NCBI GenBank assembly: GCA_963675245.1
Contig: OY775910.1
Location: 448,001 to 512,000, forward strand
Direction: 5' to 3'
Length of the DNA stretch: 64,000 nt
Origin: Acholeplasmataceae bacterium
GTDB taxonomy: Bacteria > Bacillota_I > Bacilli_A > Acholeplasmatales > Acholeplasmataceae
Part shown: positions 2,126 to 21,653 of the stretch, piece by piece
Layout of the letters: the number at the start of each line of letters is the position of its first letter
Numbering within the stretch: the stretch's first letter is position 1
Made by a program: the position numbers and the translations under genes
The notes under the pieces: generated by a model
Database searches by the model: none
What the model saw: only the letters and a program-made list of their open reading frames with translations
Told to the model about the DNA's origin: nothing

Positions 2126-2819
2126 ACAATTTCACCCCTATAAATATGGCTTCTTCGTAATTACATAATATTTTAAAATGTGGATTATCAATTATATTTT
2201 TTATTAGTTTTTCCTCATCATTTGTATGCAACGAAAATCCTGCAATATAGCCTTTATGATCATTCATAAATTCATCAATATTTATCTTTGTAATAAATTT
2301 GTCAATATTTGCCAGTTCCTCTAAATCTTTATTGTCGTTTATAAACCTCTCAATTTGCTCCAATGCTGCCCCATATCCATTGTTATTTGATCTGTATTTT
2401 GATTCGCCAAACATCAATATAGTATTGTTTATGGTGATAAAATCAAATCCTGGGTTTCCCTTTACCTGCTCTTTTATTAATTCTAATAGTGGTAGTGCTT
2501 TATGATGTAATTCGTGTTGAACAGAATAAATACTTTGCGTGCTGACGATATACTCACCAGCTTCTTCTGCTAATGAATTTTTTTCAACTGCTTTTATCTC
2601 TTCACTTATTTTTTCAGCAGTTTTTTTACATCTGCTTGCAAATGATGCTTTCAACCAATCAATTTCTAAACTATTAATCCAAGTTAAATCATTTAAATAC
2701 AATAAAAGTTTGTACACTTCAAACTCTAAGTCGTCTACTAAGACTTCAATATATCTCAATGTAACGTTTTCTTTTATTCCATATTTACTGTTTTGAATAA
2801 TAATATTGCTTTTTATCAA
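2118..2819 (-). CDS. PD-(D/E)XK nuclease, Hachiman HamA-like
   Basis: AGEYIVS...KGNPGFDF...FGESKY nuclease-type motifs; TTG start with GGGGAGGG RBS; coupled to the Ski2-like helicase. Confidence 0.7.
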   Translation of the reverse strand: MIKSNIIIQNSKYGIKENVTLRYIEVLVDDLEFEVYKLLLYLNDLTWINSLEIDWLKASFASRCKKTAEKISEEIKAVEKNSLAEEAGEYIVSTQSIYSVQHELHHKALPLLELIKEQVKGNPGFDFITINNTILMFGESKYRSNNNGYGAALEQIERFINDNKDLEELANIDKFITKINIDEFMNDHKGYIAGFSLHTNDEEKLIKNIIDNPHFKILCNYEEAIFIGVKLYE

Positions 2820-4180: not shown

Positions 4181-6238
4181 TTAATTGATTAACTTACTCT
4201 CAAGCATAAATAAGTTATTTAATAAAATATAAACGACAAAGTATATTTTGTTAATCAATCTATCCAACTCAGATAAAACAGGTATTGTTTGTTGATGAAT
4301 ATATTTGTTTCTTTCAATTCGAAATTCATTGATTTCTTTAACTGTATTTTCGACTGTTATATATCTATTTCCCATGCTAACAAACAACTCTTTTAAAATC
4401 ATAGTATAGTCATACATTGTGAGATTAATCACCCACTCTTCTAATTCTAATGAAACTTCTTTTTTTATGTTATTTCTAACATATTTTATAATAAATGCTT
4501 CATTTTTATCTAAATTATTTCGAATATAATTAATCATATTAACCATTAGTTTTTCAATACCTTTTAACTGTGGAAACAAAATAAAAGAAAAATCCATTAA
4601 ATCTTTAACAACATTACTATCAACTTGTTTCTTAAAATATCCACAAAGAAACTCGCTTTCTATTAAATGTAGATACCAATCTTTACTTATTTTATTAAGG
4701 CATTCTATTGAATTAACAATATCATTTTCCGACATAAAAGGTAAATTCCAAAATTTGTGATATTCAGATTTAGATATATTGAGTAGTTTTTCTAAAAACA
4801 CTTTTGATAAGTCATCAAAAGCAAAATCTGAATAACTATACTGATTGGTAGTATCTAATTCGATTTGTAATAGTTGTTCGTTTATTTTATTAACAATGAA
4901 TTTTTCTCGCAAATATTGTTGGTACAATTCATCATCAAACAATTCATAAGAATATATGCAATCATTGAACAATAAATCACGTGTGCAACTTTCTAAAGTC
5001 ATTAACCTCATTGTTAGATAATTTTCTAAATCTTGTATAACATCTAAATCATTATGTTTATGTGCATAGTCTAGAAGGTATAACAGACTATCCTGAAAAA
5101 ATTCATGAGCCTTTATTAATTCATTAATAAAATTGTTGCTGTCTATTTTAATTGTACCCTCAATATCATTGTAAACAAAAGATAGATATTTAGAAAGTAA
5201 ATTTTCTCCATTTGTGATTTTTCTATATATATCTTTAGATAAATTTAGGTTTTCAAATAATTCTTCTACGCTGCTAAAAACTTCTTGCGTATAATCTTCA
5301 TTAAATGTATCAATTAAATCTGAAATATTCGAAATAAATCCTTTTTCAATTTTTTCATATTGTTCAACAAAAAATCTTTTCCAATCAAATTGTTCTAAAT
5401 ATTCTTTTCTATTTTTTAAAAGTTTTATCATTAAGCCTCTAGACAATTTATTATCTTCAATATATTTATCTAAATCTATTTTCATCATTGAGAATAGATT
5501 ATATTTAGTTATGTCAATTAATCTTTGGAATTGATAACCCAATTGCCATTTTTTTCTATACTCATCAAAATATTCTAAAATAGAAATGCTTATGTTTAAT
5601 TTATCGGTATTAAAATCTGAAGAATCATAACAATCGTTAATAATTTCCAATATTTCATATAATATACCTGAATGTCTTTTTATTTCGTAATTATAATTTT
5701 CAAACAAGCGTTTTACTACATTGTTATAATCAAAAACATAGAAAAAGATCTCTACTAGATACTTTTTGTATTTGTAGGCATTTTCTTCAACAAATTTGTC
5801 TATTATTGAAAATAAACTACTAAAAAGAAAGCTAGACTCAGCATTAATGTTTCTTGAGGCATCTATTTGTTCTCCATGAACCATTAAATCCACAAGCTTA
5901 ATAACTTGTTGTTTAAACGTTTTATATTTAGAAAAATTAAATTCAATTCCATAAATATTGAAAATGAAATGATAAACAAAATCATGATATTGAAATGACT
6001 TTTCTTTATAAATTAACAATTCATTATATAAAAAATCACTGTTTTTTTTTATTAGAATTTCGTCAAGATCTTTGATAGAATTTTGCAACATATAAAACGT
6101 GGGAAATAAATCAGAACTTTTGTAATACAACTCTATCATTAATAACCCAAGTTCCTCATTGGATATTCTGCGTTTAGTATTTTCCAGAATTCTTTTATAG
6201 TGTTCATCGTAATATTTCCATATAATCGTTTCGTTCAT
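4181..6238 (-). CDS. Large helical protein with putative C-terminal HEPN RNase domain
   Basis: ATG at 6238 with GGAGG RBS at 6245-6249; C-terminal DFSFILFPQLKGIE...EFRIERNKYIH (RxxxxH at 4295-4312); N-terminal ~530 aa unrecognised. Confidence 0.55.
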   Translation of the reverse strand: MNETIIWKYYDEHYKRILENTKRRISNEELGLLMIELYYKSSDLFPTFYMLQNSIKDLDEILIKKNSDFLYNELLIYKEKSFQYHDFVYHFIFNIYGIEFNFSKYKTFKQQVIKLVDLMVHGEQIDASRNINAESSFLFSSLFSIIDKFVEENAYKYKKYLVEIFFYVFDYNNVVKRLFENYNYEIKRHSGILYEILEIINDCYDSSDFNTDKLNISISILEYFDEYRKKWQLGYQFQRLIDITKYNLFSMMKIDLDKYIEDNKLSRGLMIKLLKNRKEYLEQFDWKRFFVEQYEKIEKGFISNISDLIDTFNEDYTQEVFSSVEELFENLNLSKDIYRKITNGENLLSKYLSFVYNDIEGTIKIDSNNFINELIKAHEFFQDSLLYLLDYAHKHNDLDVIQDLENYLTMRLMTLESCTRDLLFNDCIYSYELFDDELYQQYLREKFIVNKINEQLLQIELDTTNQYSYSDFAFDDLSKVFLEKLLNISKSEYHKFWNLPFMSENDIVNSIECLNKISKDWYLHLIESEFLCGYFKKQVDSNVVKDLMDFSFILFPQLKGIEKLMVNMINYIRNNLDKNEAFIIKYVRNNIKKEVSLELEEWVINLTMYDYTMILKELFVSMGNRYITVENTVKEINEFRIERNKYIHQQTIPVLSELDRLINKIYFVVYILLNNLFMLESKLIN

Positions 6239-6276
6239 AATCAACCTCCATACCGTTGACTAACAATTTAAAATTT

Positions 6277-7194
6277 TCATTTATTTGTATTTATAATATC
6301 TAATATTTTACATTCCTTAGCAAGATCACATGCACTTTCATAAGAAATATTTGTTACTCCTTGTGGAATAGTTGTACTGATTTGTGGTAAATCCTTACTA
6401 TTCATTAATTTTACACTTCTAATGCTGTTTTTTAATGAAAAAACAATACCTTGATTTAGAGTATCAATTCCACAATAATTCATCATTTTGTGTAGAGAAA
6501 ACTTCGTTTCAAAATTATTGGTTTTGTTTAACACTTCCACAAATAATTCAAATAAACTAGTACCTTTTTCAGTTGTATATAAGATAACGGAAGATACAAA
6601 TATGTCATATAATAAATTATGAAGTTGTTCATGAGTAAATCTATGAATTCTATTTGCTTTAGTGGTTGTTTTTACCTCAATTTTTTTGGTCTCTGTAATT
6701 TCGATGTCGTGTTTAGAATATGCGTTTTTATGATAGTCATTGAGTATGTTTTTATACCCTTTATTATAAAAATATAAAAGTGTTATTAGTTCTCCTGCTG
6801 TACCTATCTGTATATTGTTAAGATCACCACTTGGTTTTTGAAATAAATTTTGTATTGAAAACATTAGTTCTGAAAAAGTGTCTTCATCAATTGGGTTTTC
6901 AATTTTTTTAAAAACATATTCATAAATAATATCAAAATTATGATCCATATAATCTGTACTATCTTTACAACTAATAAGATGAAAATAGTACTTTTTGTTA
7001 TCATAGTTTAAAACTACATTTTTTTTAATAATAAGATGTTTTGTGTCATAACTAAATTCTATAATCTTTAGGGATGAATTCTTGAAAAGTAAGGTTCTTT
7101 GACCAGATTCGTTAATGCATGGAATAACATTTGCGTTTTGAAGTTCACCTTTTTCAATTTCAGTAATGTATTTATAAATCATAAATAAATTCAT
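6277..7194 (-). CDS. PD-(D/E)XK nuclease, DUF4420-like
   Basis: GTAGELITL...KHDIEITETKKIEVKTT...HRFTHEQL; follows the Z1 gene as in MORC-Z1 systems; start may be 7182. Confidence 0.75.
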   Translation of the reverse strand: MNLFMIYKYITEIEKGELQNANVIPCINESGQRTLLFKNSSLKIIEFSYDTKHLIIKKNVVLNYDNKKYYFHLISCKDSTDYMDHNFDIIYEYVFKKIENPIDEDTFSELMFSIQNLFQKPSGDLNNIQIGTAGELITLLYFYNKGYKNILNDYHKNAYSKHDIEITETKKIEVKTTTKANRIHRFTHEQLHNLLYDIFVSSVILYTTEKGTSLFELFVEVLNKTNNFETKFSLHKMMNYCGIDTLNQGIVFSLKNSIRSVKLMNSKDLPQISTTIPQGVTNISYESACDLAKECKILDIINTNK

Positions 7195-9325
7195 CTCCTG
7201 TTACATATCTAATACTATATTTAGTTAGAGGATTGTTAAACGCCAATAGTGGTATAATTTTTTTTTCCGTTTTGTCTGTGTAAACTAAATGTATCTGTAG
7301 TTGTAATTTATTTTCTAAACCTGTCAAATTTTTATCTCCTGGATACTCTGTTCCAATATCATATCCTTGTGGAAGTTCTTTAATGGAATTTCCCTGAAGA
7401 GATAAGGAACGATACTGACCCGTTTTATATCTCATTATAACTATCTTTATAAGATTTTCTATCATGCCATCTTTTACTTGTTCTAAAATTTTTTTAAATG
7501 GTATAGGTCCTATTACTGAATTTCTTTGAAATTTAAACTTAGAAATGAAATTTTTATATAATTCAGTATATTCACTTGTAATAATCAAATGGTTTTGGGA
7601 ATCATTTAATGCAAATTTTATAATTTCACTTTTGTAGTTTTTTTCTTCAATTAACGATTTTATTATCTCATTGTTATTATATATATCTTTTGCACTAAAT
7701 AGTATAGATTTATCATAAGTATAGCCAGATTTAATCCTTTGCAATGTAATAGTTTTAGAAACAGTTCTTCTGGTTATGATAAGTTTATCATGATCTAATG
7801 AAAAAATTCTTTTGTATTCTTTTAAATTGATTTTAGTTTCTAGAAACTCTGAAACAGACACCCACAAATCACGTTCATTGTCTGCTATTGCAATGAATTT
7901 TTCTTTCAAACTTTTTGTCATATATACTCTGCATACATCAAAGTAGTTGCGTTTATAACCAAACCATCTAGCTCTTTGATACAAAGTATCAATTGCGGAA
8001 ACTTTTGAATCCCTATACATATATGTAACTATTAGGTTAGGAATTGTTACCCCCCTTGACAGCATATTACCACCTACATAAATTTTAAATAGAATATTTT
8101 CATCTTTTTTGCTTTCTTCAATATCTGTCATTCCTTTCGCAGAAGTATTATATTCATAAACCTTATAGAAGTCTAGAGAATTAATTAAGATTCTTATAAT
8201 TGACTCAAAAGAATATTTTACATTAAATTCATTTTCATATATCTTTTGAAAATCTTCAATTATCATAGCATGAAACGGATGATTTGAATGAAATATTATT
8301 TCTTTTAAATCTTCTAAATCATCAGATATTTTTTCAACTATGTTTTTTTGAACTTTTTTTAAGTGTGAAGGGTGAATAAGCATCGAAAATGGTTTGTTAG
8401 GATTTTTTATTTTTTCTATAATGGTACCTAACATAAAATATTTTAATGCGGATTTATAAGAATCAGGTATGGTGAATTTAAAATCATCTGTATCATCAAT
8501 TGTAATTACATGGGGGTTTGACATCAAATCATGAAAAGCGTCTCCACCAGTATAGGATTCTCCTGGTTCAACCAAGACAGCATAATCCGGGCTTAATTCA
8601 TCAAGTGTTGATAAGAGTAAATTAGCCTGTGGTGTAGCAGTGATAAACATCATTGTAATATTTTTAAAACTGAACAATATATCACTTATAACGTCGTGAG
8701 TGATTCCTGCTCTATTGTTTCTACTTTTCATTTTTGGAGCTCCAGGTGTATGTTCGTCACTTTCATCATCAACTATCAAAATCGGAACATCCTTCATTGT
8801 TTCAGCAAAATCAAGAGCTAAATAAAGATTAGTTTGTTTGGAACTAACGTTTTTTAAAACAATTACAATAACTTTGAAACCATCATTAATTAATTTTAAT
8901 ATTTTATCGCATTTTGAATCTTTCAAGACTAAAATTTTCACTTGATAATTGTTATCAAACTCCTGAGATAATCTTGTCAAGTTTTGATCTAATAAATTAT
9001 TTTTTGTCCCTCCAAATAAAAAACAAACGTTATAACCATTATCAAATGCTAAGGCTATTGATGAGATGAAAAATGCAGTTTTCCCGCTTTGTACTTTACC
9101 CAAACATAAAATTTTAGATCTGCTCGTTTCTTTTTTAGGGTCTGCAAAAAAGGAAACTGCTTTTTTTGAATTAGTTTGTATATGTTTTGCTACTTTTTCT
9201 CCTCTGCTATTAATCAGATTTTCTAACATTAGATGATGATGATATCCATCTAAAACAACTGTATTTAGTCTATCATCATTGTCTTCTCTTAAGATATAAT
9301 CAAATTCTACATGTTCTGTCTTCAT
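7172..9325 (-). CDS. Z1-domain SF2 helicase/endonuclease subunit
   Basis: LGKVQSGKT, LIVDDESD, TATPQANLL, YTGG, SMLIHPS, VGGNMLSRGVTIPNL, DTLYQRARWFGY. Confidence 0.9.
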   Translation of the reverse strand: MKTEHVEFDYILREDNDDRLNTVVLDGYHHHLMLENLINSRGEKVAKHIQTNSKKAVSFFADPKKETSRSKILCLGKVQSGKTAFFISSIALAFDNGYNVCFLFGGTKNNLLDQNLTRLSQEFDNNYQVKILVLKDSKCDKILKLINDGFKVIVIVLKNVSSKQTNLYLALDFAETMKDVPILIVDDESDEHTPGAPKMKSRNNRAGITHDVISDILFSFKNITMMFITATPQANLLLSTLDELSPDYAVLVEPGESYTGGDAFHDLMSNPHVITIDDTDDFKFTIPDSYKSALKYFMLGTIIEKIKNPNKPFSMLIHPSHLKKVQKNIVEKISDDLEDLKEIIFHSNHPFHAMIIEDFQKIYENEFNVKYSFESIIRILINSLDFYKVYEYNTSAKGMTDIEESKKDENILFKIYVGGNMLSRGVTIPNLIVTYMYRDSKVSAIDTLYQRARWFGYKRNYFDVCRVYMTKSLKEKFIAIADNERDLWVSVSEFLETKINLKEYKRIFSLDHDKLIITRRTVSKTITLQRIKSGYTYDKSILFSAKDIYNNNEIIKSLIEEKNYKSEIIKFALNDSQNHLIITSEYTELYKNFISKFKFQRNSVIGPIPFKKILEQVKDGMIENLIKIVIMRYKTGQYRSLSLQGNSIKELPQGYDIGTEYPGDKNLTGLENKLQLQIHLVYTDKTEKKIIPLLAFNNPLTKYSIRYVTGDEFIYDL

Positions 9326-9331
9326 TGATAA

Positions 9332-10813
9332 TCACTCCAGATTTTTAATAATTTCATTTATTTTTTTTACAAATTTATATGAGTCTTTAAATCCAGCTGT
9401 TATACTTGACAATTCTGAGATAGCAATAATTATTGCAAAAGTTTGCATTAGTTCAGATTCACCTTGTTTAAGTTTTTTAAATAGTTTAAGATTATTGTTA
9501 ATTCTAACGGAATATTGATTTTTTTCTATGGAGATAATTGATACATTTATCCATTCTTCATCTCTTTCGTTTTCATCACAATAACTAAGTAAAAATTGAT
9601 AATCTTGACCCTCATAACTAATTTCAAGTTTATGCATATCTTCTTCTAAAACTGAATTTACTGGAAGATCACCATCGTTTTGTTTATCGACTAAAACCGT
9701 CTTTTTGATCTGTTTTAGACTTTCAAATCTTTTATAATCTTTTTTAACCATGATTTGTTGTTTTTCTGCTGATAATCTGTTTTTTTTAGATTTTCTAAGC
9801 GAGCTAGCAATCTTTATAAATTTACTAATAATACTGTTATTTTTCAATTCAATAATAAACTTGTCTTGTAATCCATTGTTCCATGTAAAAGATCCCTTAT
9901 TAAAATCTACTGGCCATTCATTTAAATTAATTTCACCTACGATTCTCTGATATGGAAATGAATTTGCTTTACCAAGCAAGAGTTCAGGTCTATAATTGCT
10001 TACAATAATTCTGTCCTGCTTGAGTAGAGAAAATCCAGCCTTACCATTTTTTGATGTATCTGCCGTGTGTAAAATACCTATCCATCCGAAATATTCATAT
10101 CTTTTTCCACCAAATGTTAATTCACCTTCGAAATCTTGGAGAAATTCCGATCCATCTTCATTGATCCATAGTTGAGGTGGTTCATACTTAACCGATTGAT
10201 TTGGATAAAAATTAATTTCTAGTTCTTCGTTACCTAAATAAATATGATAAATTTTTGACAAGGCTTCCATTAATAATATTTTTTCTTTATTTGTGATTTT
10301 TACAATTAGATTTCTTATTGTGATTTTTGAATAGTGTTCATTTGGTAATACAGTGTCATCAATTTGTGCGATTACTATTTTACTGTTCTTTTTCAATAAT
10401 TCCTCATTTATAGTAGCTGTGTATTTTTCTGAATTTCCAAGCATTGTTGTCTCGATTGTATATTCATATCCTAAAGATATCGCTGCATATTTTAAGCCCA
10501 TACCAAATTCACCCAAACTGTTTTCTGGATATTCTTTATTTTTCTCATTGAGAGTTAATGCTCGTTTAAATGCTTCTAAATTCATGCCGTATGCATTATC
10601 AGAAATAGAAATCTCATCTTTGCTAATTGTTATCAATACAACACATTTATCGATACCAAGTTCTTTTAATTTTATATTATTTTCCTTCGTACGAAAACTT
10701 TGTAAAGAATTATCAATAAATTCTTTGAAAATGTTTTCTAACTTCAATTGATTTCTTTGAAATTGTAGTTGAATACTTGTTCCAACTTCAATATTTATTT
10801 TTTCTTGTCTCAT
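9332..10813 (-). CDS. MORC/MutL-like GHKL ATPase
   Basis: KEFIDNS (N-box), ISDNAYGM (G1), LGEFGMGLK (G2); later RIVGEINL...VDFNK of the S5-like domain. Confidence 0.88.
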   Translation of the reverse strand: MRQEKINIEVGTSIQLQFQRNQLKLENIFKEFIDNSLQSFRTKENNIKLKELGIDKCVVLITISKDEISISDNAYGMNLEAFKRALTLNEKNKEYPENSLGEFGMGLKYAAISLGYEYTIETTMLGNSEKYTATINEELLKKNSKIVIAQIDDTVLPNEHYSKITIRNLIVKITNKEKILLMEALSKIYHIYLGNEELEINFYPNQSVKYEPPQLWINEDGSEFLQDFEGELTFGGKRYEYFGWIGILHTADTSKNGKAGFSLLKQDRIIVSNYRPELLLGKANSFPYQRIVGEINLNEWPVDFNKGSFTWNNGLQDKFIIELKNNSIISKFIKIASSLRKSKKNRLSAEKQQIMVKKDYKRFESLKQIKKTVLVDKQNDGDLPVNSVLEEDMHKLEISYEGQDYQFLLSYCDENERDEEWINVSIISIEKNQYSVRINNNLKLFKKLKQGESELMQTFAIIIAISELSSITAGFKDSYKFVKKINEIIKNLE

Positions 10814-10815
10814 AT

Positions 10816-12021
10816 TTACACTCCTTTGTTATTGTCGATATAATTTATAAACTGTTCAAAAACATTATAAATAACATCCACATTTACTGCATTTCCAAGC
10901 ATTCTATAAATGTCTTTGCCTACACTATCATACTTAAATGAAGTAGGAAAACTTTGAAGTCTCAAGGCTTCAATCGGTGTAATATACCGTTTAAATTTTC
11001 CAATAATAGGAATATGTGCCATTGCAACTAATGTTGGTGAATAATCAGGCTTTTTAACACGCACCCCAGATGGCCTAAATTGTATAATGCCTTCATAAAC
11101 CGATTTAATTGCTGTACCAGCCTGCCATTCAAATTTTCTTTGAGTTTTTTTAAATTGAGCAATATTATGTTTGATATACCAACCATCAATAAATTTTTTA
11201 TTATCGTAGTATAGTTTTCTATTTTTCATTATAAATATTTGTTTCCACTTGGGTAAATGTTCAATATCGTAAGTGAGTTTGAATTCATCTGACCAAATCG
11301 GAAATCCAATTATTTTCTTGTTTATATGTTTATAAAAATCATCCCATGCATCTAACACTTTTTGTTCATATTCATTTATACCGTATTCTAACATGATTTT
11401 TTGTGTGTTTTTCTGATAATATTCGGATATTTTCGTTGTTGGCGATAATTTTTTAACATTGAAATTTAATTCATCTGAAAAAACATCGCTATCAACAGCA
11501 AGTATAATTGCTCTATCTCTCAATTGTGGTATATCAAAATCAATTGGTTTTAATATGATTGGTTTTTTAATAGTGTTATATCCAAGCTCAACCAAAGTCT
11601 GATAGATAGTTTTCCATGTATTTCCATTGTCATGGGATTCTAAGTTTCTTACATTTTCTAATATTAGTATTTTTGGTTTATAACCATTTTGAGTTTTTTC
11701 TCTAATAATTCGCTCTATTTGAAAAAATAATGTCCCTCTTGTATCATTAAAGCCGTTTTGTTTGCCTGCTTTAGAAAATGGTTGGCATGGAAAACCAGCG
11801 CACAATACATCAAAATCATCCATATTTTTAGTGATTATAGTTTTGATGTCATTGTTACTATTTTGATTAAAATTTATTTTATATAAAGCGACTGCGTTCT
11901 TATTAATTTCAGACGCTAAAACACATATAGCTTCTTTATCGTATTTGTTCATAGCAAAATGAAACCCACCGATTCCGGCAAATAAATCTATAAATTTAAA
12001 TTTTTTCGGTAAAACGCTCAT
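10816..12021 (-). CDS. dcm: DNA (cytosine-5)-methyltransferase
   Basis: FIDLFAGIGG (I), AGFPCQPFS (IV), ENV (VI), PQLRDR (VIII), RLQSFP (IX), LGNAVNV (X). Confidence 0.95.
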   Translation of the reverse strand: MSVLPKKFKFIDLFAGIGGFHFAMNKYDKEAICVLASEINKNAVALYKINFNQNSNNDIKTIITKNMDDFDVLCAGFPCQPFSKAGKQNGFNDTRGTLFFQIERIIREKTQNGYKPKILILENVRNLESHDNGNTWKTIYQTLVELGYNTIKKPIILKPIDFDIPQLRDRAIILAVDSDVFSDELNFNVKKLSPTTKISEYYQKNTQKIMLEYGINEYEQKVLDAWDDFYKHINKKIIGFPIWSDEFKLTYDIEHLPKWKQIFIMKNRKLYYDNKKFIDGWYIKHNIAQFKKTQRKFEWQAGTAIKSVYEGIIQFRPSGVRVKKPDYSPTLVAMAHIPIIGKFKRYITPIEALRLQSFPTSFKYDSVGKDIYRMLGNAVNVDVIYNVFEQFINYIDNNKGV

Positions 12022-12023
12022 TA

Positions 12024-12521
12024 TTAAGCACCTAATGCACTTTCATTAAATTTCATGTAGTCTTTCAAAATTATATTAAAATTAAACTTATCTGAAAGCC
12101 AAATTTTTTGCTTAAAATCAGTTGTTATAGTATATCCTTTATTGAACGTTTGAAATATATTATTTACATGAACATAACAAGATCTATTTTTCTTGTGATT
12201 ACCAAAATTATAAATGTTCCAAAATATAAAAATATCTTTACTATAAAGAGAGTCTACACCAATAATCATGCTTGTGTTTGAGTGTCCCGACGCAATAACA
12301 CTATCTATATCAAACCCTTTGATTTGTACTCTTCTTATGTCCGGCTTATTAGACCATCCACTACCACTAACAGTTCTTATAAAAGCATAAATAGTATAAT
12401 GGTTTATTTTGTCGATTTCAATTTTGTAAAATCCTTCATTTGTTCTATTGAAATTAATAATGCTGAAACCCGAACATAATATAGCTTCTTTAATTTTATC
12501 AATATTGTTTTGCTTCTTCAT
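12024..12521 (-). CDS. Small methylase-associated protein (MTaX1-like)
   Basis: FIRTVSGSGWSNKPDIRRVQI...MIIGV...DIFIFWN...RSCYV resembles, from memory, the methylase-associated X1 domain; lies directly upstream of the MTase. Confidence 0.5.
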   Translation of the reverse strand: MKKQNNIDKIKEAILCSGFSIINFNRTNEGFYKIEIDKINHYTIYAFIRTVSGSGWSNKPDIRRVQIKGFDIDSVIASGHSNTSMIIGVDSLYSKDIFIFWNIYNFGNHKKNRSCYVHVNNIFQTFNKGYTITTDFKQKIWLSDKFNFNIILKDYMKFNESALGA

Positions 12522-14612
12522 TTACACTATCACATACTTTTTCACTATATTAAGTATATCCTCTCCAAAATTGTTAATTGAGAATGATTTCATACCACAA
12601 TCGTTTCGTAACGACGACAATGTTTTAGGCTTATAAAAATTTATTTTTGATCTTTGATTATTTGTAAAAATATGATAGGCTTCGACTTTCCCTTGATATT
12701 CTCTATATTTATTTCTTCGATATTCAGTCAATTCTTGTGACAGTCCCGGTTTATATTCATTAAATATTTTTATATCCGACAAAAATCCAACTTCATTTTC
12801 ATTCTCACATAAAAAATATTTATCAAAATAATTTTTATGAGAAACACTTGTTGTCCAATATTTATTTATCAGATTCGTAAGTTTGGGTATTACCGTTCGA
12901 TAATAGTATGTATCATTCTTTGTAAAATTAGAGTATGCATAATTCGGATAAAGATTTTTAAAGAATCTATATGCTTCAATTACATAATTATCATATAAAA
13001 AATCAAAGAATTCATATGCAATTTCCCTTTCGCTTATTATATTTGAATTTTTAAATATTGCTAGTTTTCCGATATCATTTTGTGATATCTTTAGTTTAAA
13101 ATCAGAATCTTCTACAAAATCGTGTTTTATTGATAATCCAGAAATCAATTTATAGAAATCTTTATTAAAATAAATTTTTACTATAAATCCAAAAATAGCT
13201 AAAAAGAGAAAAAATCCATTTCTTGCCAACCCATTCTTATCTGCATTTGTTTCTATTCTTTGTACTCTGAGTTTCCATTTATAAAATCCTACTTTAAAAT
13301 GTTGCAATACTAATAGTAAAAGTGTATTGTATTCATTTTTGTAAATAATATCATAATAACTATCATTTGATAACATTCTAGATTTACTATTTCTTGCTAT
13401 CCCTGGGTGTTGATAAATAAAGGAAAAAAGCATCTGCCCAATTTCATCATTTTTAGCGTTTTGCCATTTCTCGTGATATATACTTCTGTTGATTTTTTCT
13501 CCTCTCTTCACTTGTACATAAACTCCTACTTTTTTAAGTTGATATTGTAGTTTTTTTTGTTCTATCCTGTTAGCAATTATATCCTTCATATTTATTGGTT
13601 TCTGTGTATTGCTTGTTTCAGCTACTTTGCTTAAAAATTCCAGATTTTCATCTTTATTTTCATACTTAGTTTTTATAATTTTACACACTACTGAAAAATC
13701 CTCTGAAAACAAAGAATTTCCGATTAAATTAGTCGTTTGTCCACCATTAACTATTGAAAAATTAATCAATTCAATTTTATTTTGCTTTATTTTGTAATCA
13801 TCACAAGTGATTATGATTCCATTGTTAAAATACCAAAATTTTTCAGGTTCATTTAAAATACTATCTTTAATGTTTTTGTCAATTTTTGATGATTTAACGT
13901 AATACCTAAGATTATTAGAAAACAAACCAGTTGTTCCATAATTAATGAATAAATCTTTTAATGAAGTAGCTAAAATAGATGTCACAATTGATTTTTCATT
14001 TCCATGAAAAAACAATTGACCAGCTGAACTCATAGTAACGACTCCAGATTTAACATTCATGTTTGGACTATCTATATCAGATACAATTTCTTCTATATCA
14101 TCACGAAAAAAGATTAGATAATTTAAATTTTCAAGTTTGCTTTTAAAGTTTGTTACTAATTCTTTGATTTCAGATTTTATTTCCGGTTTTATTATCAAAT
14201 CACATAAAAGTATAATTTGCATTCTAGATTCATCTGAAATGTTTTTATCCATAAGTATGCTTCGAATTTCATTTTTTTCAAAAGATTTATGTCCACTAAA
14301 TAAACTAGCATAAAAATGATCAATATTTTGTATATAGTTTCGAATGTTATCTAAAATAAAATCTTCAATTAAAATATCCAGAACTTTTATGATATCAATG
14401 TTTCCAATCTCAGATTCTTCTTCTTCTCCAATACCATCCAAATATTCATATTCGTATATATTATCTAATAAATTATCAATACGAGTTTCGTCTGCATTAT
14501 AATACTCATAAAACATGTAGATTTTCACAATCGTACTTTTATCGTCGGTTTTAAGTATTAAATTGTTTTCCTTGTAAATTTGATTTAATCTTTCTATTGC
14601 TTTTTCTAACAC
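12522..14612 (-). CDS. AIPR family protein with C-terminal HRDC domain
   Basis: LFSNNLRYY, EPEKFWYFNNGIIITC, SIVNGGQTT, SNTQKPI (AIPR); C-terminal LTEYRR...AYHIFTN...KPKTLSSL...GM...FGEDILNIV (HRDC); GTG start with GGGAGG RBS. Confidence 0.88.
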   Translation of the reverse strand: MLEKAIERLNQIYKENNLILKTDDKSTIVKIYMFYEYYNADETRIDNLLDNIYEYEYLDGIGEEEESEIGNIDIIKVLDILIEDFILDNIRNYIQNIDHFYASLFSGHKSFEKNEIRSILMDKNISDESRMQIILLCDLIIKPEIKSEIKELVTNFKSKLENLNYLIFFRDDIEEIVSDIDSPNMNVKSGVVTMSSAGQLFFHGNEKSIVTSILATSLKDLFINYGTTGLFSNNLRYYVKSSKIDKNIKDSILNEPEKFWYFNNGIIITCDDYKIKQNKIELINFSIVNGGQTTNLIGNSLFSEDFSVVCKIIKTKYENKDENLEFLSKVAETSNTQKPINMKDIIANRIEQKKLQYQLKKVGVYVQVKRGEKINRSIYHEKWQNAKNDEIGQMLFSFIYQHPGIARNSKSRMLSNDSYYDIIYKNEYNTLLLLVLQHFKVGFYKWKLRVQRIETNADKNGLARNGFFLFLAIFGFIVKIYFNKDFYKLISGLSIKHDFVEDSDFKLKISQNDIGKLAIFKNSNIISEREIAYEFFDFLYDNYVIEAYRFFKNLYPNYAYSNFTKNDTYYYRTVIPKLTNLINKYWTTSVSHKNYFDKYFLCENENEVGFLSDIKIFNEYKPGLSQELTEYRRNKYREYQGKVEAYHIFTNNQRSKINFYKPKTLSSLRNDCGMKSFSINNFGEDILNIVKKYVIV

Positions 14613-14622
14613 ATTAGCCTCC

Positions 14623-16506
14623 CTAGAAATTTTTAGTGATCATATTTTTGTCATTAAAATGGATATTTAGTAGATATTTTTTAAAATCTATATTCTCACA
14701 ATATACAAAACATCCCTTTTGTGCTCTAGATAATAAAGTTTTATATGTATTTCTAATTATTCTATCTGCAAATTCATAATTTTTAGTTGTTTTGATACCT
14801 TTTAGACTTTGATCTGTCTTAGCTCGTTTTGTAAAATCCGTTTGTACTTTGCCATCTTTGTATATCATATCTTTTCCGATAATTATACCTACATAATCAA
14901 ATTCTAGTCCTTGAGATGTATGTATACATCCAACCTGATCAAACGATGATTTATCGATTGCCCATGTATTTGTATCATTAAAATTCCATTTTGCTTTAAA
15001 TCCGTTTTCTAACTCTATATCATAAACATCATCATGTTTATTCTTTTTAGTAATCCACTCATAACAATATCCAGCAATCATTCTTGCCTTGTTGTTTATT
15101 TCATTTAATTCTCGTAAGTCTTCTCTCATTTTGACTGGGTCATCATAAACTCGAAAATCATAATCCATTTCAAATCCATCAAAGTTAGCTGTTTCTCTTA
15201 TGCCTAACAAGTTGTCAAGAAATGAAATATAACCTTCGCTACCATTGCATCTAAATTGAGATGATAGTTTAAAATCATCGCCAGATAAGACTTTGCTTCC
15301 TAATTTTTTTGCTTGCTTCTTTATTTCATTAATTGAACCGAAGTCTTTCGTCGTAACGATCTGATCTTCATCAATAAAGAAGACACTTACGCGAGCAGCA
15401 TTAATTAATTCTTTGATTTGATTTTCACCTTTATTTGCGAACAATCCTGATCTTTCATTTAATCTATGTGCCTCATCTATAACGATACAATCATAATCAT
15501 TTTTCTTAGAATCAATAAATGCCCCTGATCCCTTGAATAAATTTTTAACATAACTTTGCTTGTAGTTGCCCTGCATCATTTTAGCAAAATACACATTCCT
15601 TGGCGCTGCGTTCTTAGTGACATAATTAACATTCAAATGTTTGAATTCTGCAAGTAAATTGATAGCTATGACACTTTTGCCAGTTCCTGGTCCACCCTCA
15701 ATGATAATTGTATATTTCTCATCGTTTTTTTCTGCAAGCTCAATAACCTTTTTGACGGTTGAGAATACTACTTTTTGTTCATCAATCATATAGAACTCTG
15801 GATTACCTTCAATCATTGAAACTATTGCGTCTTGTAATGCTTTTGAAGGTTTAATTCTTCCATGCTCTATTTCATAGATGGTTTTACCTTGATCAGACTT
15901 CTTAACATATCTTTTGATGAATTCACGCAATTTTAATACGTCAGTTTTAATAAACATTGGTGCTAATTTAATTGCAGTTTCATATAAACTGTTGTCTAAT
16001 TCAACTCTATATTCTTCTTTATAGTTATGTAAAAAACTACATGGATGTAGTTCGATTTTATTTTGTTGGACATACTCATTATAATTTTCAATTGTTTTTG
16101 CATAGGAGTATGCTTGATAAGATGGATGAGTTGTTGGCCGAATGGCACCAGCTAGATAGGTAGTTACTAAATCTTCTCTACTTGTTTTTTCGGCTTGTTC
16201 CCATTGTTTAAGTTCAATAATAACGACTTGCTGATTATTGTTTTCATCTAAACCACTAACAATAAAATCAACTCTCTTAGATGTAGTTGGTATTTGATAT
16301 TCTATAGATACATGTATATCTTGAGATATTTCAGGATCACTTAATGCATTTTTCATATGTAGTAAAGAAGCATCAAATGCATGATATTGACTGAGATTCA
16401 CACCACCAATGTGTCTTTTACGCATCTCTTCAACTATTAAATCTGCAATTATTCCACGATCAACATCTTTATTAAATTGTGCTATTTCTCCCGAATATAC
16501 AATCAA
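14623..16506 (-). CDS. DUF2075 / Schlafen group-3 nuclease-helicase
   Basis: IEYQIPTTSKRVDF...IIELKQW nuclease part; HPSYQA; GGPGTGKS; IDEAHRL; QFRCNGS; VGCIHTSQGLEFDY; TTG start at 16506 after AGGGGT. Confidence 0.9.
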   Translation of the reverse strand: MIVYSGEIAQFNKDVDRGIIADLIVEEMRKRHIGGVNLSQYHAFDASLLHMKNALSDPEISQDIHVSIEYQIPTTSKRVDFIVSGLDENNNQQVVIIELKQWEQAEKTSREDLVTTYLAGAIRPTTHPSYQAYSYAKTIENYNEYVQQNKIELHPCSFLHNYKEEYRVELDNSLYETAIKLAPMFIKTDVLKLREFIKRYVKKSDQGKTIYEIEHGRIKPSKALQDAIVSMIEGNPEFYMIDEQKVVFSTVKKVIELAEKNDEKYTIIIEGGPGTGKSVIAINLLAEFKHLNVNYVTKNAAPRNVYFAKMMQGNYKQSYVKNLFKGSGAFIDSKKNDYDCIVIDEAHRLNERSGLFANKGENQIKELINAARVSVFFIDEDQIVTTKDFGSINEIKKQAKKLGSKVLSGDDFKLSSQFRCNGSEGYISFLDNLLGIRETANFDGFEMDYDFRVYDDPVKMREDLRELNEINNKARMIAGYCYEWITKKNKHDDVYDIELENGFKAKWNFNDTNTWAIDKSSFDQVGCIHTSQGLEFDYVGIIIGKDMIYKDGKVQTDFTKRAKTDQSLKGIKTTKNYEFADRIIRNTYKTLLSRAQKGCFVYCENIDFKKYLLNIHFNDKNMITKNF

Positions 16507-16831
16507 TGTGCTACCCCTTTTATAGAACAAATAACGACAAATTGTCGCTATGAATCCCCCAACATGAATAAAGCCTAGAAATTCTATAGCAATATCCCGA
16601 TTTATGTCTGCTTTAATATATATTTTACTCTATTTTGATCAATAATCAAAGTTTATTTAGATATAGTCAATAAATCTTAAGTTTTTTTTGAAAAATCACA
16701 AATCAGAAATAATCTTTAAGTAATTTGTTTCCATTTTGAATTGGTACATATATCTTTATATTATACATGTATATTTTTATCTTTTTTATCTGTTCAGTAC
16801 TATAATGAAAGTGAACAAAGGAGATGATTAA

Positions 16832-17353
16832 ATGAGCTTATTTGAGACGATTCCATATGAAACATTAATGAAAGATAAAGCCATTGAAATCAGAGCGTAT
16901 GACGACATCCTATTAGCGAGTACAAAATCATCCATTAATAAACATTATGATAATGGTTTTATGAATGTATTCAATTATATTTCTGGTGAAAATGATCAAT
17001 CTAAAAAGATCTCAATGACCACGCCTGTTGTTTCTTACGAGGATAAGAATCAACTCATCACTGGATTCTACGTGCCTAAAAAATATAACAAAGAAAATGT
17101 CCCTATACCAAACGCTGAAAATGTGTTTATTGATGAGATTGAACAATCACTATATGCGGTGATACGCTTTAGAGGTTCATGGAAAAAAGAACGGTTTGAT
17201 AAAAAAGAAAAAGAGTTAAGAGATTACTTAAACGAACATCATTATAAGATCTTATCTTCTCGTTATCTCTTCCGTTATCAACCACCGTTTATTCCAGGGA
17301 TATTCCGCCATAATGAAATCGCGTTTAAAGTGGATAAGAAAAATGTGGATTGA
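16832..17353 (+). CDS. SOUL heme-binding family protein
   Basis: ETIPY...IEIRAY, GFMNVFNYISGEN...KISMTTPV, YQPPF...RHNEI. Confidence 0.85.
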   Translation: MSLFETIPYETLMKDKAIEIRAYDDILLASTKSSINKHYDNGFMNVFNYISGENDQSKKISMTTPVVSYEDKNQLITGFYVPKKYNKENVPIPNAENVFIDEIEQSLYAVIRFRGSWKKERFDKKEKELRDYLNEHHYKILSSRYLFRYQPPFIPGIFRHNEIAFKVDKKNVD

Positions 17354-17375
17354 CATATGTCTTTCCACATTTTTT
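17339..17375. terminator. Bidirectional intrinsic terminator between the SOUL gene and the Mbx operon
   Basis: AAAAATGTGGA...TCCACATTTTT inverted repeat between convergent genes. Confidence 0.7.
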
Positions 17376-17388
17376 ATACGATGACTTC

Positions 17389-19386
17389 TTATTTCGTTTC
17401 CGGTTTAATCGCTAGTTCTGGATTATTAAATCTAATCGCTTCTCTGATTTCTTTCATATAATCAGATTGCTCTTTCTTCTTCGCTTTTTTGTAAAGATAG
17501 TCATCAATACCTACAGCAGCTCTATGTCCATCTGAAACAGCTGTAATAATATCAGGACCTCTTAAAACGTCCCCACCAACAAATAGCCAATCAATACCTT
17601 CCACATGACCGTTTCCATCGGCTTTGATCTTGCCTCTTTCAATCGTCATCTTAGATGACAAGCTTTCTGGAAGATATGTGTAATCAGGTGCTTGACCGAT
17701 TGAGAAGAAAATTTGTTCTCCTTCTAGTAATGTGACATCTTCATCATCAAATTGAGGATTGAACCGTCCATCTTCATCAAAGACACATAAACACTTCTTG
17801 ACTTTAATGCCTTCAATGTTGCCATCTTTAATAATGATTTCTTGTGGACCACATCCAAAGTGATACGCGATACCTTCTTCGCCACCTTCGACATATTCAT
17901 CTTCATCAGCTGGCAAAATATCATAGGTTTCAAGGGACGTAAGTTTCACATCGACCTTACCATATTTAATCGTTTGTAGTCTTGCTAGGTTTCTAGCCAC
18001 GTCAAACGCGACATTACCACCACCAACAACCACTGCTGATTCTTTCACGGTAATATCTTCTAGTTTTAAGTCTCCTCGTGCAAAGTCTCTTGTGAGTGGT
18101 AAGAAATCCATCGCACCCATGACATCTTGGTGATCACTTCCTGGGATGTTAAGTTTTCTTGCACTAAAGAACCCAGTGCCTAAGAAGACAGCGTCATATT
18201 TTTCCTCTAATTCATCTAATGTGATGTCTTTACCCACTCTCGTGTTTAAATGAATATTCACGCCAATCTTTTTAATGAAGTCAATATCCTTTTGAACCGC
18301 GTAATCAGGAATACGATATTGTGGTGCACCAAAACTTGCGACACCACCTGCATGACTCTTTTCTTCAAAGACATCCACGTGATACCCTAAACCTCTTAAA
18401 TAATAAGCGGCACTTAAACTGGATGGCCCAGATCCGGCAATCGCGATCTTCGCGTCAATGACTTCAGAGACAGGTTCACTAAAGATCTTTTCATACATAT
18501 CATCAGGTGCAGAGTCAATAATATACCGCTTAAGCCATCTAATCGCGATGGCTTCGCCTCTTACAGCGATAGCGCAGGCAAATTCGCAGTTATGCGTACA
18601 TACCCTGCCACAAACCCCTGGAAGTGGGTTTGTCTCATAGACTTGACGTAAAGCCCCTTCTATGTCATCTTCCCAAATCGCTTTAATATACTGTGGTATA
18701 TGCATTTGCACAGGACATGATGCCGTACAGACACCGCATTCCACACAACGTGCGGCTTCCTGTTTCGCAAATTCCTTAGAATAACCACGAACCACTTCAA
18801 TATAACTCTTAACCCGTTCTTCTGGTTCAATGTGTGCCATTTCAACGCGTTTTAAATCAAGCAGATCTGTTTCTTCAGTTTTATGATAACCGCCTTCAAC
18901 TTTCATCTTTTCCCAAAGCTCATCAGGCATTAACACGAAATTATCTGGATCAGAATCCGCGTAAATGTATTCTTTTGACATTTGAAGAGATTCTGTCGTG
19001 CATGTGTCCACACATAACCCGCAGAAACAACATCTACCATAATCAATCACTGGACGCACTTGATGCTTACCCGCGACTAACGGTAAGTCTGTTCGTTCAA
19101 CCATTGTAATCGCGTCTGTTGGACAAATGTCTTCACATGTCCCACAACCAATACATTTCGTCCAATCATTCGTGTGAAAACCACGAAGATTATCCGGTGC
19201 GGTTCTAGGGTTAGCGTTTTCTAATTTTTTCTTTCTAAAAGGATGGGTCTTACGAAGGTAAGCCGCATTTCTTTCAGTAAAGATCGTATTGAGTTCATGT
19301 GACACAGGTGCTCTAAATAGGTATTTAAATAATCTAAACGGTCTAAATATACTCGGTTTTGGATATTTCTTGTTTTTATCGTCCAT
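17389..19386 (-). CDS. NuoI/MbxN-like 2x[4Fe-4S] subunit fused to a GltD/NfnB-like FAD/NAD(P) oxidoreductase
   Basis: CIGCGTCEDICP and CCFCGLCVDTC (NuoI-like); EAARCVECGVCTASCP, CGRVCTHNCEFAC, GSGPS, GGGNVAFD, VGGDV (GltD-like). Confidence 0.9.
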   Translation of the reverse strand: MDDKNKKYPKPSIFRPFRLFKYLFRAPVSHELNTIFTERNAAYLRKTHPFRKKKLENANPRTAPDNLRGFHTNDWTKCIGCGTCEDICPTDAITMVERTDLPLVAGKHQVRPVIDYGRCCFCGLCVDTCTTESLQMSKEYIYADSDPDNFVLMPDELWEKMKVEGGYHKTEETDLLDLKRVEMAHIEPEERVKSYIEVVRGYSKEFAKQEAARCVECGVCTASCPVQMHIPQYIKAIWEDDIEGALRQVYETNPLPGVCGRVCTHNCEFACAIAVRGEAIAIRWLKRYIIDSAPDDMYEKIFSEPVSEVIDAKIAIAGSGPSSLSAAYYLRGLGYHVDVFEEKSHAGGVASFGAPQYRIPDYAVQKDIDFIKKIGVNIHLNTRVGKDITLDELEEKYDAVFLGTGFFSARKLNIPGSDHQDVMGAMDFLPLTRDFARGDLKLEDITVKESAVVVGGGNVAFDVARNLARLQTIKYGKVDVKLTSLETYDILPADEDEYVEGGEEGIAYHFGCGPQEIIIKDGNIEGIKVKKCLCVFDEDGRFNPQFDDEDVTLLEGEQIFFSIGQAPDYTYLPESLSSKMTIERGKIKADGNGHVEGIDWLFVGGDVLRGPDIITAVSDGHRAAVGIDDYLYKKAKKKEQSDYMKEIREAIRFNNPELAIKPETK

Positions 19387-19396
19387 GTTAGCCTCC

Positions 19397-20503
19397 CTAC
19401 CTATCTATCTCAGGGGAACAGATCCCCATCGTATCTACCCAAAGGGCAGCGTCATCAATTCTCGTACCTGGTAAGTATTTTTCAATACCGAGTAACCCTT
19501 GTGGGTAACTCGCACCTCTGACACCCACACGATATGGGTAAGTCCCACCATTTGATACCATATAGTATCCGAATTCACCACGACTGGATTCAATCGGTGA
19601 ATAGACATATCCTTTAGGTACTGTCCAACGCATCGATTGACCACGTTGTGGTTTCACTCTGACAGGACCTTCAGGCATCTTAGCTATACATTGTCTAATA
19701 ATATGAATGGATTGCTGGACTTCTTTAAGTTTAATATCAAGTCGTGCTCTTGCATCACTATAATCAGATGTCGGTACGTCAAAGTCCACTTGATCATATT
19801 TCGCATAAGGCATGACTTTTCTTAAGTCATTTTTCTTGTTTACTGCTGAACGCATCCCAATACCAGTCACACCTAATTCCCAAACGACTGATTCAGGTAA
19901 CATAATCGTATCTTTAATACGTTTAATTAACGTCGCGTTATCAATCCCTAAATCGCGATATTCAGATATTCTTGATTCTAAACCTTTCAAGAAATCAAGA
20001 ATCTCTGCGTCAATGCCTTTAGGCAGATCCATACGAACACCACCAATCACGATGTATTGGTGATAAACCCTCGCACCTGTAATTTTCTCAAAGATATCAA
20101 GAATTAAGTTACGATCAACGTGTGCGTGATACATCAAGGTATAGTTACCTGTTGGACCACCACATCCACCGTAAGCCATTAAATGTGCAGAAATTCTTGC
20201 AAGTTCTAAGATAATCATACGAATCCAATGGGCTCTTTCAGGTATGTCTAACTTTAAGAGTTTTTCAGCCGCTAACGCGAACGCCATTTCATTGATATCT
20301 GGTTCTGGTACGCAGACTCTAGGAATTAAAGAAATGTTTTGAACCCAAAGTTTCTTTTCCATGGCTTTTTCAAAGCCCCTGTGTAACATACCAGGCAGTA
20401 AATAACTTCTTTTGATGATATCGCCATCAACGAACATATGAACAGATGCGTTTCCGTGCATCCCAGGATGTTGAGGTCCTAAAAACAATTTCATTTCTTT
20501 CAT
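19397..20503 (-). CDS. NuoD/MbxL-like catalytic subunit
   Basis: LGPQHPGMHG, HRGFEK, PRVCVPEPD, ESSRGE, C-terminal ICSPEIDR; no NiFe CxxC pairs. Confidence 0.9.
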   Translation of the reverse strand: MKEMKLFLGPQHPGMHGNASVHMFVDGDIIKRSYLLPGMLHRGFEKAMEKKLWVQNISLIPRVCVPEPDINEMAFALAAEKLLKLDIPERAHWIRMIILELARISAHLMAYGGCGGPTGNYTLMYHAHVDRNLILDIFEKITGARVYHQYIVIGGVRMDLPKGIDAEILDFLKGLESRISEYRDLGIDNATLIKRIKDTIMLPESVVWELGVTGIGMRSAVNKKNDLRKVMPYAKYDQVDFDVPTSDYSDARARLDIKLKEVQQSIHIIRQCIAKMPEGPVRVKPQRGQSMRWTVPKGYVYSPIESSRGEFGYYMVSNGGTYPYRVGVRGASYPQGLLGIEKYLPGTRIDDAALWVDTMGICSPEIDR

Positions 20504-21652: not shown

Positions 21653-21653
21653 A

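Follow-up and report, generated by a model that had tools for sequence, protein, structure and literature searches.

A recurring MORC-Z1 methylation-and-cutting cassette, probably stacked with separate Nhi-like and HEPN genes in an Acholeplasmataceae defence island

The stretch of DNA analysed here (the window) comprises 64,000 nucleotides of an Acholeplasmataceae bacterium (contig OY775910.1, positions 448,001 to 512,000). Its list of open reading frames holds eight intact, co-oriented genes at positions 4181..16506, on the minus strand. These genes and their downstream neighbours are as follows.

14623..16506, minus strand: gene 1, DUF2075 nuclease-helicase, TTG start, 627 aa
12522..14612, minus strand: gene 2, AIPR-HRDC, 696 aa
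12024..12521, minus strand: gene 3, MTaX1, 165 aa
10816..12021, minus strand: gene 4, C5 cytosine methyltransferase (MTase), 401 aa
9332..10813, minus strand: gene 5, MORC-family GHKL ATPase, 493 aa
7172..9325, minus strand: gene 6, Z1 helicase-like motor, 717 aa
6277..7194, minus strand: gene 7, DUF4420-like PD-(D/E)xK nuclease, 305 aa
4181..6238, minus strand: gene 8, orphan with a probable C-terminal HEPN domain, 685 aa
2914..4146, minus strand: MFS transporter, present in 10/10 genomes of the host genus at 63-86% identity
2..2819, minus strand: Hachiman-like pair, a 233-aa gene and then a HamB-type helicase (PADLOC HamB1, E 1e-49)

Each of the eight start codons is preceded by an RBS-like sequence. 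The DUF2075 and AIPR genes are 10 nt apart, followed by gaps of 0 nt to MTaX1, 2 nt to the MTase, 2 nt to MORC and 6 nt to Z1; the Z1 and nuclease genes overlap by 23 nt, and the orphan HEPN gene begins 38 nt further on. A previous reading of the letters alone (the sequence-only reading) described eight co-oriented, tightly packed genes in this order, and all are indeed intact and on the same strand. The co-oriented run extends past gene 8, with the MFS gene 34 nt on and then the Hachiman-like pair. Because the MFS gene is equally tightly spaced and occurs in all ten genus genomes, intergenic spacing alone cannot delimit a system. The MFS transporter is a resident gene that marks an insertion hotspot and lies outside the cassette; in genome G127, the cargo differs on both of its flanks. 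The HamB-type helicase continues beyond the window edge (778 aa in the full genome) and its 233-aa partner gave no HamA match; the pair is a separate system within the same low-GC island (24-29% GC vs 34%). Scans for promoters (116 against 115.7) and terminators (3 against 2.8) were at chance level, and the island ends yielded no att-like repeat pair, the repeats listed being AT-rich, chance-like pairs. The SOUL gene upstream of the array occurs in only one of nine congeners, in a different context, and therefore no empty insertion site is definable.

The domain identities proposed from the letters agree with Pfam matches for genes 1-6 and, through relatives, with DUF4420 for gene 7, and the domain matches bear out the proposed MORC/Z1/DUF4420/AIPR restriction-like core. 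The MTase (PF00145 DNA_methylase, E 5e-74) retains motifs I, IV (PC), VI (ENV), VIII, IX and X, all intact, and tblastn found no second copy in the host genome. The MORC protein has a Pfam HATPase_c_3 match, GHKL motifs at 31, 72 and 101, and the MORC-specific GhXhhpXXRhl at 260. In the Z1 protein (PF10593, E 2e-45), Walker A lies at 76, Walker B at 186 and DThhQXuRhFG at 446. At 717 aa it is of a short type, against which long-type Z1 proteins (open frames of about 900-940 aa) score much lower; the Z1 profile found no match among solved structures. The gene 7 nuclease itself has no Pfam match; 8/10 aligned members match DUF4420 (PF14390), and E135, D163, E173 and K175 are invariant in all ten. 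As a separate observation, GGCGCC is depleted (14 observed vs 75 expected), a depletion not attributable to this MTase, itself absent from the congener loci examined.

Several described systems resemble this gene set. As far as the available text of Iyer 2008 (PMC2292703) goes, MORC restriction-modification (R-M) operons of type 3 share with the window a true MORC motif (GHKL plus GhXhhpXXRhl), an SF2 helicase with a C-terminal DThhQXuRhFG (Z1), an adjacent RE-fold E-D-ExK nuclease and a cytosine methylase, frequent in that type; the legend of its Fig. 2 names AIPR as common in R-M operons. Compared with the type 3 described there, the eight genes of the window include no Vsr, contain MTaX1, and place AIPR, with an HRDC-like tail, first, although this AIPR-MTaX1-first order may already be drawn in the figure or supplement of that paper. 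The type II systems of Miller 2022, in the accessible part of PMC9523054, likewise combine Z1, PD-(D/E)XK/DUF4420, a cytosine MTase, AIPR and MORC, but with a Z1 of 925 aa; the gene set here has no transcription regulator, and has MTaX1, which goes unmentioned in that part. Mza (mzaABCDE; Gao et al. 2020, via the available portions of PMC9523054 and bioRxiv 2022.06.16.496414) has the same domain types, whereas the window lacks MzaA (sigma-like), has an MTase and MTaX1, and differs in gene order. Scores of the Mza models fell far below the NCBIfam cut-offs (MzaB 21.3 bits/850, MzaC 120.1/1500, MzaE 43.5/1050), the MzaA and MzaD models matched no window protein, and the MzaD model matched 0/10 aligned nucleases (PADLOC). 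Of the kinship claimed previously with Mza-type and MORC R-M operons, the latter part stands, through the motifs of Iyer type 3 and the gene content of Miller type II; the former is a resemblance that falls short of the cut-offs. The DEAD-Z1 enzymes CglI and NgoAVII, as given in the accessible part of PMC5861437, share a Z1 motor and a C5 MTase but are three-gene systems with a site-specific R subunit, in place of which the window has a DUF4420-like nuclease and MORC. The six genes from AIPR-HRDC to the nuclease represent a variant, seen repeatedly, of a MORC-Z1 methylation-and-cutting defence cassette that is known but still poorly understood.

The recurrence was established with a census of the best 80 related Z1 loci, gathered by an alignment-based scan of genome contigs (a single-protein scan of the contigs with Z1 found nothing); in 46 of the 80, the flank extends for 2 kb or more in each direction. 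Z1 occurs in 80 of these loci, MORC in 78, the MTase in 76, the nuclease in 76, MTaX1 in 20, AIPR-HRDC in 8, DUF2075 in 5 and the HEPN orphan in none. The exact six-gene order of the window recurs in 6/80, including the rearranged, AIPR-first arrangement noticed earlier, which is therefore a real, recurring variant. The nearest Z1 relative (52-53%) has the same six genes, without DUF2075 and HEPN. Neither the eight-gene set nor a seven-gene set with DUF2075 was found (0/80 each), and the proposal that the eight genes form one undescribed layered system is not supported. Slots flanking the core hold other defence genes (AspBHI-like 9, McrBC-type 7, GIY-YIG 6, HNH 4), that is, interchangeable genes at rates similar to or above that of DUF2075. 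Trees of Z1 and DUF2075 were built with FastTree, which gave long-branch warnings, and omit Z1 proteins under 650 aa (3/80) and DUF2075 proteins under 570 aa. A suspected MTaX1 fusion in the 686-aa MORC of loci L037 and L079 was not confirmed.

The core of the cassette is MTase > MORC > Z1 > PD-(D/E)xK nuclease; in the window's clade it is preceded by MTaX1 and, in some loci, by AIPR-HRDC. MTaX1 (methylase-associated X1; PF20296, E 3e-9; Atlas 0.96) had been counted among the extra parts. It is nothing unusual: the domain has been described as an accessory of R-M systems (PMC10853773), and among the 22 other loci of this clade 19 have it, as a clade-wide fifth gene. AIPR-HRDC (PF10592, E 1e-28; C-terminal HRDC-like domain E 4e-4 at 20.9 bits, under the 23.8 cut-off) is conserved full-length in 8/80 core loci, all inside that clade; AIPR also occurs without the core. 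It is a variable accessory of the cassette.

Gene 1 matches PF09848 (E 1e-97, Pfam) and contains N-terminal nuclease residues D80..E..K100, a Walker A motif (GGPGTGKS) at 271 and DEAH at 344; these motifs give it the Nhi-like architecture known from stand-alone proteins, a PD-(D/E)xK nuclease joined to a DUF2075/SLFN-g3 helicase. It is likened to Nhi and Nhi-like proteins (bioRxiv 776245; bioRxiv 2022.05.11.491447) by this single-gene architecture, whereas the DUF2075 copies of the host's family are mostly paired with a MazG-like gene. Homologues in that family are up to 73% identical and mostly lie beside MazG without the core: among 19 full-length loci, MazG adjoins in 10 and the core in 3. 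MazG is missing in the window and in genome G491, where the order (DUF2075 > MTaX1 > MTase > MORC > Z1 > nuclease) is that of the window minus AIPR. DUF2075 may be a facultative but functional partner, recruited time and again to short-Z1 MORC cassettes and, for example, processing or degrading DNA after the first cut, with HEPN as a passenger. Four of the nine short-Z1 genomes of the family (the window's own counted) carry DUF2075, in all four no further than about 1.3 kb from the core; several independent juxtapositions appear on the Z1 and DUF2075 trees, with core-adjacent copies scattered over the latter; the spacing to AIPR is only 10 nt in the window; and DUF2075 has been reported beside modification-dependent nucleases (PMC6765204). 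Nonetheless, the other five family genomes gave no DUF2075 match, and DUF2075 lies near the core in just 5/80 loci, upstream or downstream and never together with AIPR; of these five, one is a weak match (23%, E 1e-5) and another is split. A rough enrichment test, with non-independent kin and approximate denominators, gave p = 0.12 without the window's genome and 0.04 with it. Moreover, DUF2075 also adjoins unrelated defence genes (DndB, FRG, a MutH-type R-M system, a GHKL-SduA/ResIII locus), and in genome G057 lies about 740 kb from a long-type Z1 operon. Such a partnership appears unlikely. The sequence-only reading would fall if DUF2075 and HEPN never accompanied the core elsewhere; among the 80 loci this is so for HEPN, and for DUF2075 only in part, as it sporadically adjoins related cores. 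DUF2075 is a probable passenger rather than a part of the cassette.

Gene 8 found no family in domain-model searches, and word-based homologue searches returned only itself; an exhaustive search gave two relatives, and a phylum search matched 2/399 genomes, the window's counted. Four homologues were found in all, one with both flanks known. R643, N644 and H648 (RxxxxH) are invariant in 5/5 sequences of the family, and RxxxxH is the motif of HEPN RNases. In the structural model (mean pLDDT 53), RnlA matches residues 420-677 (Z 9.9, rmsd 3.9, 146 aa), and LsoA (Z 8.7), sacsin HEPN (7.9) and HepS (7.8) also fall on the C-terminal part. Unrelated helical bundles reach Z values of this size too. 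A Foldseek search of the PDB returned nothing at E <= 0.001, a single-sequence fold (pLDDT 38) was unusable, and Atlas matches of low recognition (ApeA-like 0.90, RNase LS 0.81-0.83) serve as leads only. The protein is predicted to be all-helical. It has RxxxxH in common with the RnlA and LsoA endoribonucleases and may share their C-terminal fold; it differs from them in its length (685 aa), an N-terminal part of about 420 residues, predicted helical, that belongs to no known family, and the lack of any sequence-level match, and no small antitoxin ORF was seen beside the gene. The motif and the tentative RnlA-like fold of the model back the HEPN identity given in the sequence-only reading, and the orphan is probably a rare, genuine HEPN protein.

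Whether this protein belongs with the cassette is another matter. If all eight genes were one layered system, HEPN would trigger abortive infection once restriction failed; the run is uninterrupted and co-oriented, the terminator scan marked nothing in the gap from gene 7 to gene 8, and the HEPN motif is intact. However, HEPN accompanies none of the 80 other cores, the one homologue with both flanks known (in G382, a genome with no Z1 match) lies between an IS and phosphate-transporter-like genes, another is followed by a macro-domain gene, and the same argument from spacing would draw in the resident MFS gene. We regard a single eight-gene system as very improbable. A looser version, in which short-Z1 MORC cassettes repeatedly recruit a Nhi-like DUF2075 partner and, here, have an undescribed family of 685-aa HEPN RNases as a back-up for layered restriction-plus-abortive defence, is quite unlikely. 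The orphan gene is a probable stand-alone passenger.

The reading we favour, at a probability of about 0.78, is a defence-island stack of three units: a six-gene MORC-Z1 R-M-type cassette, a Nhi-like nuclease-helicase and a stand-alone HEPN gene. Most likely, then, the DUF2075 and HEPN genes are separate anti-phage genes of the same island. From the observed gene content, intact catalytic motifs and co-occurrence pattern, we infer the following activities. The MTase would mark host DNA with 5mC; Z1 would act as an ATP-driven dsDNA motor, by analogy with the H subunit of CglI (in CglI and NgoAVII, according to the available part of PMC5861437, ATP-dependent translocation activates the nuclease); and MORC may serve as a clamp, gated by ATP, for looping DNA or loading the complex. 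Like MzaD, which cleaves the DNA of phages, the DUF4420-like nuclease would cut invading DNA that is unmarked; MTaX1 probably assists in reading the methylation state, and AIPR-HRDC may be an optional DNA-binding back-up. The Nhi-like protein would work by itself, the MazG gene that usually accompanies it being missing here, and the HEPN RNase may act independently as a candidate abortive-infection effector.

Methylation-dependent restriction by MORC type 3 operons is itself a prediction in the accessible text of PMC2292703. Methylation-based self/non-self discrimination is an assumption here, since no sequence-recognition subunit was identified in the cassette and Mza has no MTase among its five name-giving genes. 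The core could instead be a Mza-like sensor-nuclease for phage DNA structures or modifications, with the MTase guarding self or serving otherwise. Consistent with this, no recognition domain was found in the cassette, purified MzaD cuts T4 DNA with C, hmC or ghmC similarly, and modified T4 remains subject to restriction by Mza (bioRxiv 2022.06.16.496414). Retention of the MTase in 76/80 loci, with its motifs intact here, argues against it, and we consider it rather unlikely. This alternative concerns mechanism, and its gene grouping overlaps that of the three-unit stack.

MORC-Z1-DUF4420 systems are of interest for how they distinguish self from invader, and have been proposed as the bacterial forebears of the MORC chromatin ATPases of eukaryotes (PMC2292703). 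In the census, loci with the four-gene core alone, with MTaX1 added and with AIPR-HRDC added as well form a natural series of deletions, through which the minimal unit, and what MTaX1 and AIPR contribute to it, become testable on a compact motor of 717 aa. Independently of any new eight-gene system, the orphan HEPN protein is of interest in its own right: whichever grouping holds, it represents a candidate defence effector that is very rare and lacks annotation, and a candidate anti-phage RNase.

All eight open reading frames of the run (16506..4181) are present on the minus strand of the window, in the order DUF2075, AIPR-HRDC, MTaX1, C5 methyltransferase (MTase), MORC, Z1, DUF4420-like nuclease and HEPN orphan, and their tight spacing was confirmed, with gaps of 10, 0, 2, 2, 6, -23 and 38 nt from gene 1 to gene 8. 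Six domain calls of the sequence-only reading were borne out by Pfam, the HRDC tail of AIPR scoring under its cut-off; alignment identified gene 7 as a DUF4420-like PD-(D/E)xK nuclease. The block sits in a low-GC island (24-29% vs 33.9% for the 1.63-Mb genome), which runs on past gene 8 into an MFS gene after 34 nt and then a Hachiman-like pair:

Window 2-2819, minus strand (genome C1 447789-450819): Hachiman-like pair with a HamB-type helicase of 778 aa (PADLOC E 1e-49).

The 233-aa gene ahead of this helicase contains a GESK nuclease-like motif and has no match to the HamA model; it is possibly a divergent HamA. The MFS gene is resident, as it occurs in 10 of 10 genus genomes, and genome G127 carries other cargo on either side of it, with helicases and a shorter DUF2075-type gene among the genes there. 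The site is therefore an insertion hotspot, and close gene spacing here is no evidence for a single system.

By its sequence features, the cassette is a variant of an already described MORC-Z1 restriction core. The core (MTase, MORC, Z1 and nuclease) has every feature of the third MORC operon type in the available text of Iyer et al. (PMC2292703), and shares its gene content with type II of Miller as far as the available text describes it (PMC9523054), from which it differs by a shorter Z1. Mza probably works alike, but the core scores below the curated cut-offs for Mza membership. An order headed by AIPR-HRDC and MTaX1 with a short Z1 was not found in the running text of the literature searched (figures and supplements aside).

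A Z1 alignment search of genome contigs recovered 220 relatives, and the best 80 loci were retained for counts: Z1 80, MORC 78, MTase 76, nuclease 76, MTaX1 20, AIPR 8, DUF2075 5, MazG 2 and HEPN orphan 0. Contigs are often short: upstream of the core, 2 kb or more is available in 54 of the 80, downstream 2.2 kb or more in 60, and both in 46. Six loci share the order AIPR, MTaX1, MTase, MORC, Z1, nuclease (L108, L115, L116, L119, L120 and L121, L119 and L120 having identical Z1); L118 carries AIPR without MTaX1, and L117 has an AIPR-HRDC paralogue at either end of its core (L117:2343-4487 and 9634-11718). In the Z1 tree, L108 is the sister of the window, all eight AIPR loci are confined to one 16-row subclade, and MTaX1 is found in 19 of the 22 rows that accompany the window in its clade, two of the three lacking rows being cut by contig ends. 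AIPR-HRDC also occurs without the core, among housekeeping genes in G057 (43% identical) and inside another defence cluster in G464 (41%). Interchangeable defence genes flank the best 80 cores: AspBHI-like in 9 loci, McrBC-type in 7, GIY-YIG in 6 and HNH in 4.

These counts do not bear out the proposal that the eight genes form one layered restriction and abortive system: the HEPN orphan never recurs with the 80 cores, and of the two outer genes only DUF2075 does, in none of the eight AIPR-bearing loci. A class-level sample pointed the same way: it gave a Z1 match in 34 of 399 genomes, and neither a full-length DUF2075 nor a HEPN orphan occurred in any of the 16 Z1 loci inspected. The DUF2075 gene and the HEPN orphan are probably two passengers beside the cassette.

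In the DUF2075 protein a PD-(D/E)xK motif at the N-terminus is combined with intact helicase motifs, an arrangement described for Nhi and Nhi-like defences, which consist of a single gene (bioRxiv 776245; bioRxiv 2022.05.11.491447); DUF2075 adjoining modification-dependent nucleases is noted in available text of PMC6765204. DUF2075 matches occur in 25 of 151 family genomes. Among 19 full-length family loci, a MazG-like gene is the neighbour in 10 and the core in 3; no MazG-like match was obtained in the genome of the window. DUF2075 may instead be an optional partner of the core, since four of the nine family genomes with a short-Z1 core (172 searched; this set overlaps the GTDB-wide one, so counts are not additive) carry it (own, G491, G454 and G452), never more than about 1.3 kb from the core, and G491 repeats the window's gene order minus AIPR. 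However, its position relative to the core varies, the Z1 of the neighbouring cores is only 30-38% identical to that of the window, against 72% identity for two of the DUF2075 copies, and core-adjacent copies are scattered on the DUF2075 tree. Moreover, in G454 and G491 it is preceded by the same module of an HTH protein and a gene presumed from its sequence to be recombinase-like. DUF2075 has no match in the other five genomes (completeness 77-99%; one contig cut upstream), and a rough Fisher test of the association, in which kin are not independent, gave p = 0.12 when the own genome was excluded and 0.04 when it was included. Common use of hotspots explains the adjacency most simply.

The HEPN orphan (gene 8, 685 aa, 4181..6238) has no family match in Pfam, PADLOC or NCBIfam, and only two relatives among 1.84 billion representatives; further relatives came from one metagenome locus, where a macro-domain gene follows and the upstream side is missing, and from genome G382:

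L190:10013-12430: G382 homologue of 805 aa, into which a C4 zinc ribbon of the topoisomerase type (PF01396) is inserted.

The latter lies between an IS, which adjoins it, and phosphate-transporter-like genes, near a gene we take to be a DndD-like ATPase; G382 has no Z1 match. All five sequences share R643, N644 and H648. In a model built on a four-row alignment (mean pLDDT 53, C-terminal part better), residues 420-677 align with RnlA (Z 9.9, rmsd 3.9, 146 aa) and LsoA (Z 8.7), as do the C-terminal 180 residues with sacsin HEPN (Z 7.9) and HepS (Z 7.8), scores not above helical noise; a Foldseek search with the model found nothing. Motif and modelled fold combined suggest that gene 8 is likely a HEPN protein. 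A simple HEPN pattern was also applied to the 54 genes that come immediately after the nuclease in related loci; its three matches proved to be genes for an MTase, for AIPR and for a McrB-like protein.

The catalytic motifs of the core proteins are all intact. In the available text, the DEAD-Z1 H subunit of CglI acts as a dsDNA motor, driven by ATP, and activates a nuclease (PMC5861437), MORCs are proposed to loop DNA from recognition to cleavage sites (PMC2292703), and MzaD cuts phage DNA, growth arrest being absent with Mza (bioRxiv 2022.06.16.496414). From these together we infer a putative function for the cassette, which would restrict unmethylated DNA in an ATP-dependent manner while 5mC would shield host DNA. 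Alternatively, the core may sense the invader independently of methylation.

Related loci vary further. A conserved 100-aa ORF without a Pfam match (e.g. L136:6748-7050) occurs in 17 of the 80 cores, in most of them as the next gene after the nuclease, and is an unannotated accessory of a clade other than the window's. Three table 4 loci (L040, L041 and L042) have a 357-367-aa HNH protein that separates MTase from MORC, and DUF4420 gave no match in them; this HNH protein may have displaced the nuclease. A 686-aa MORC with an N-terminal extension of about 155 aa occurs at L037:7052-9112 and L079:9144-11204; HMM comparison did not identify the extension as MTaX1. Long-type Z1 operons (918-927 aa) with other gene sets come from the window's genus and family (L105 in G462, 7873-17877; L106 in G057, 7406-15992), the G057 order being MORC, Z1, a 307-aa gene, AIPR, MTase.

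In the window, a 9-pair hairpin (16531-16551, minus strand) precedes the DUF2075 start by 25 nt and could be an operator or terminator-like element, terminator counts being at chance level. A cluster at 17389-24382 (minus strand) has a GC content of about 40%; we take it to be membrane-bound hydrogenase/NADH-dehydrogenase-like, and its 665-aa gene to be a fused 4Fe-4S/GltD-like gene. Across the whole genome GGCGCC is scarce (14 observed vs 75 expected), and GGCC and GCGC are low too.
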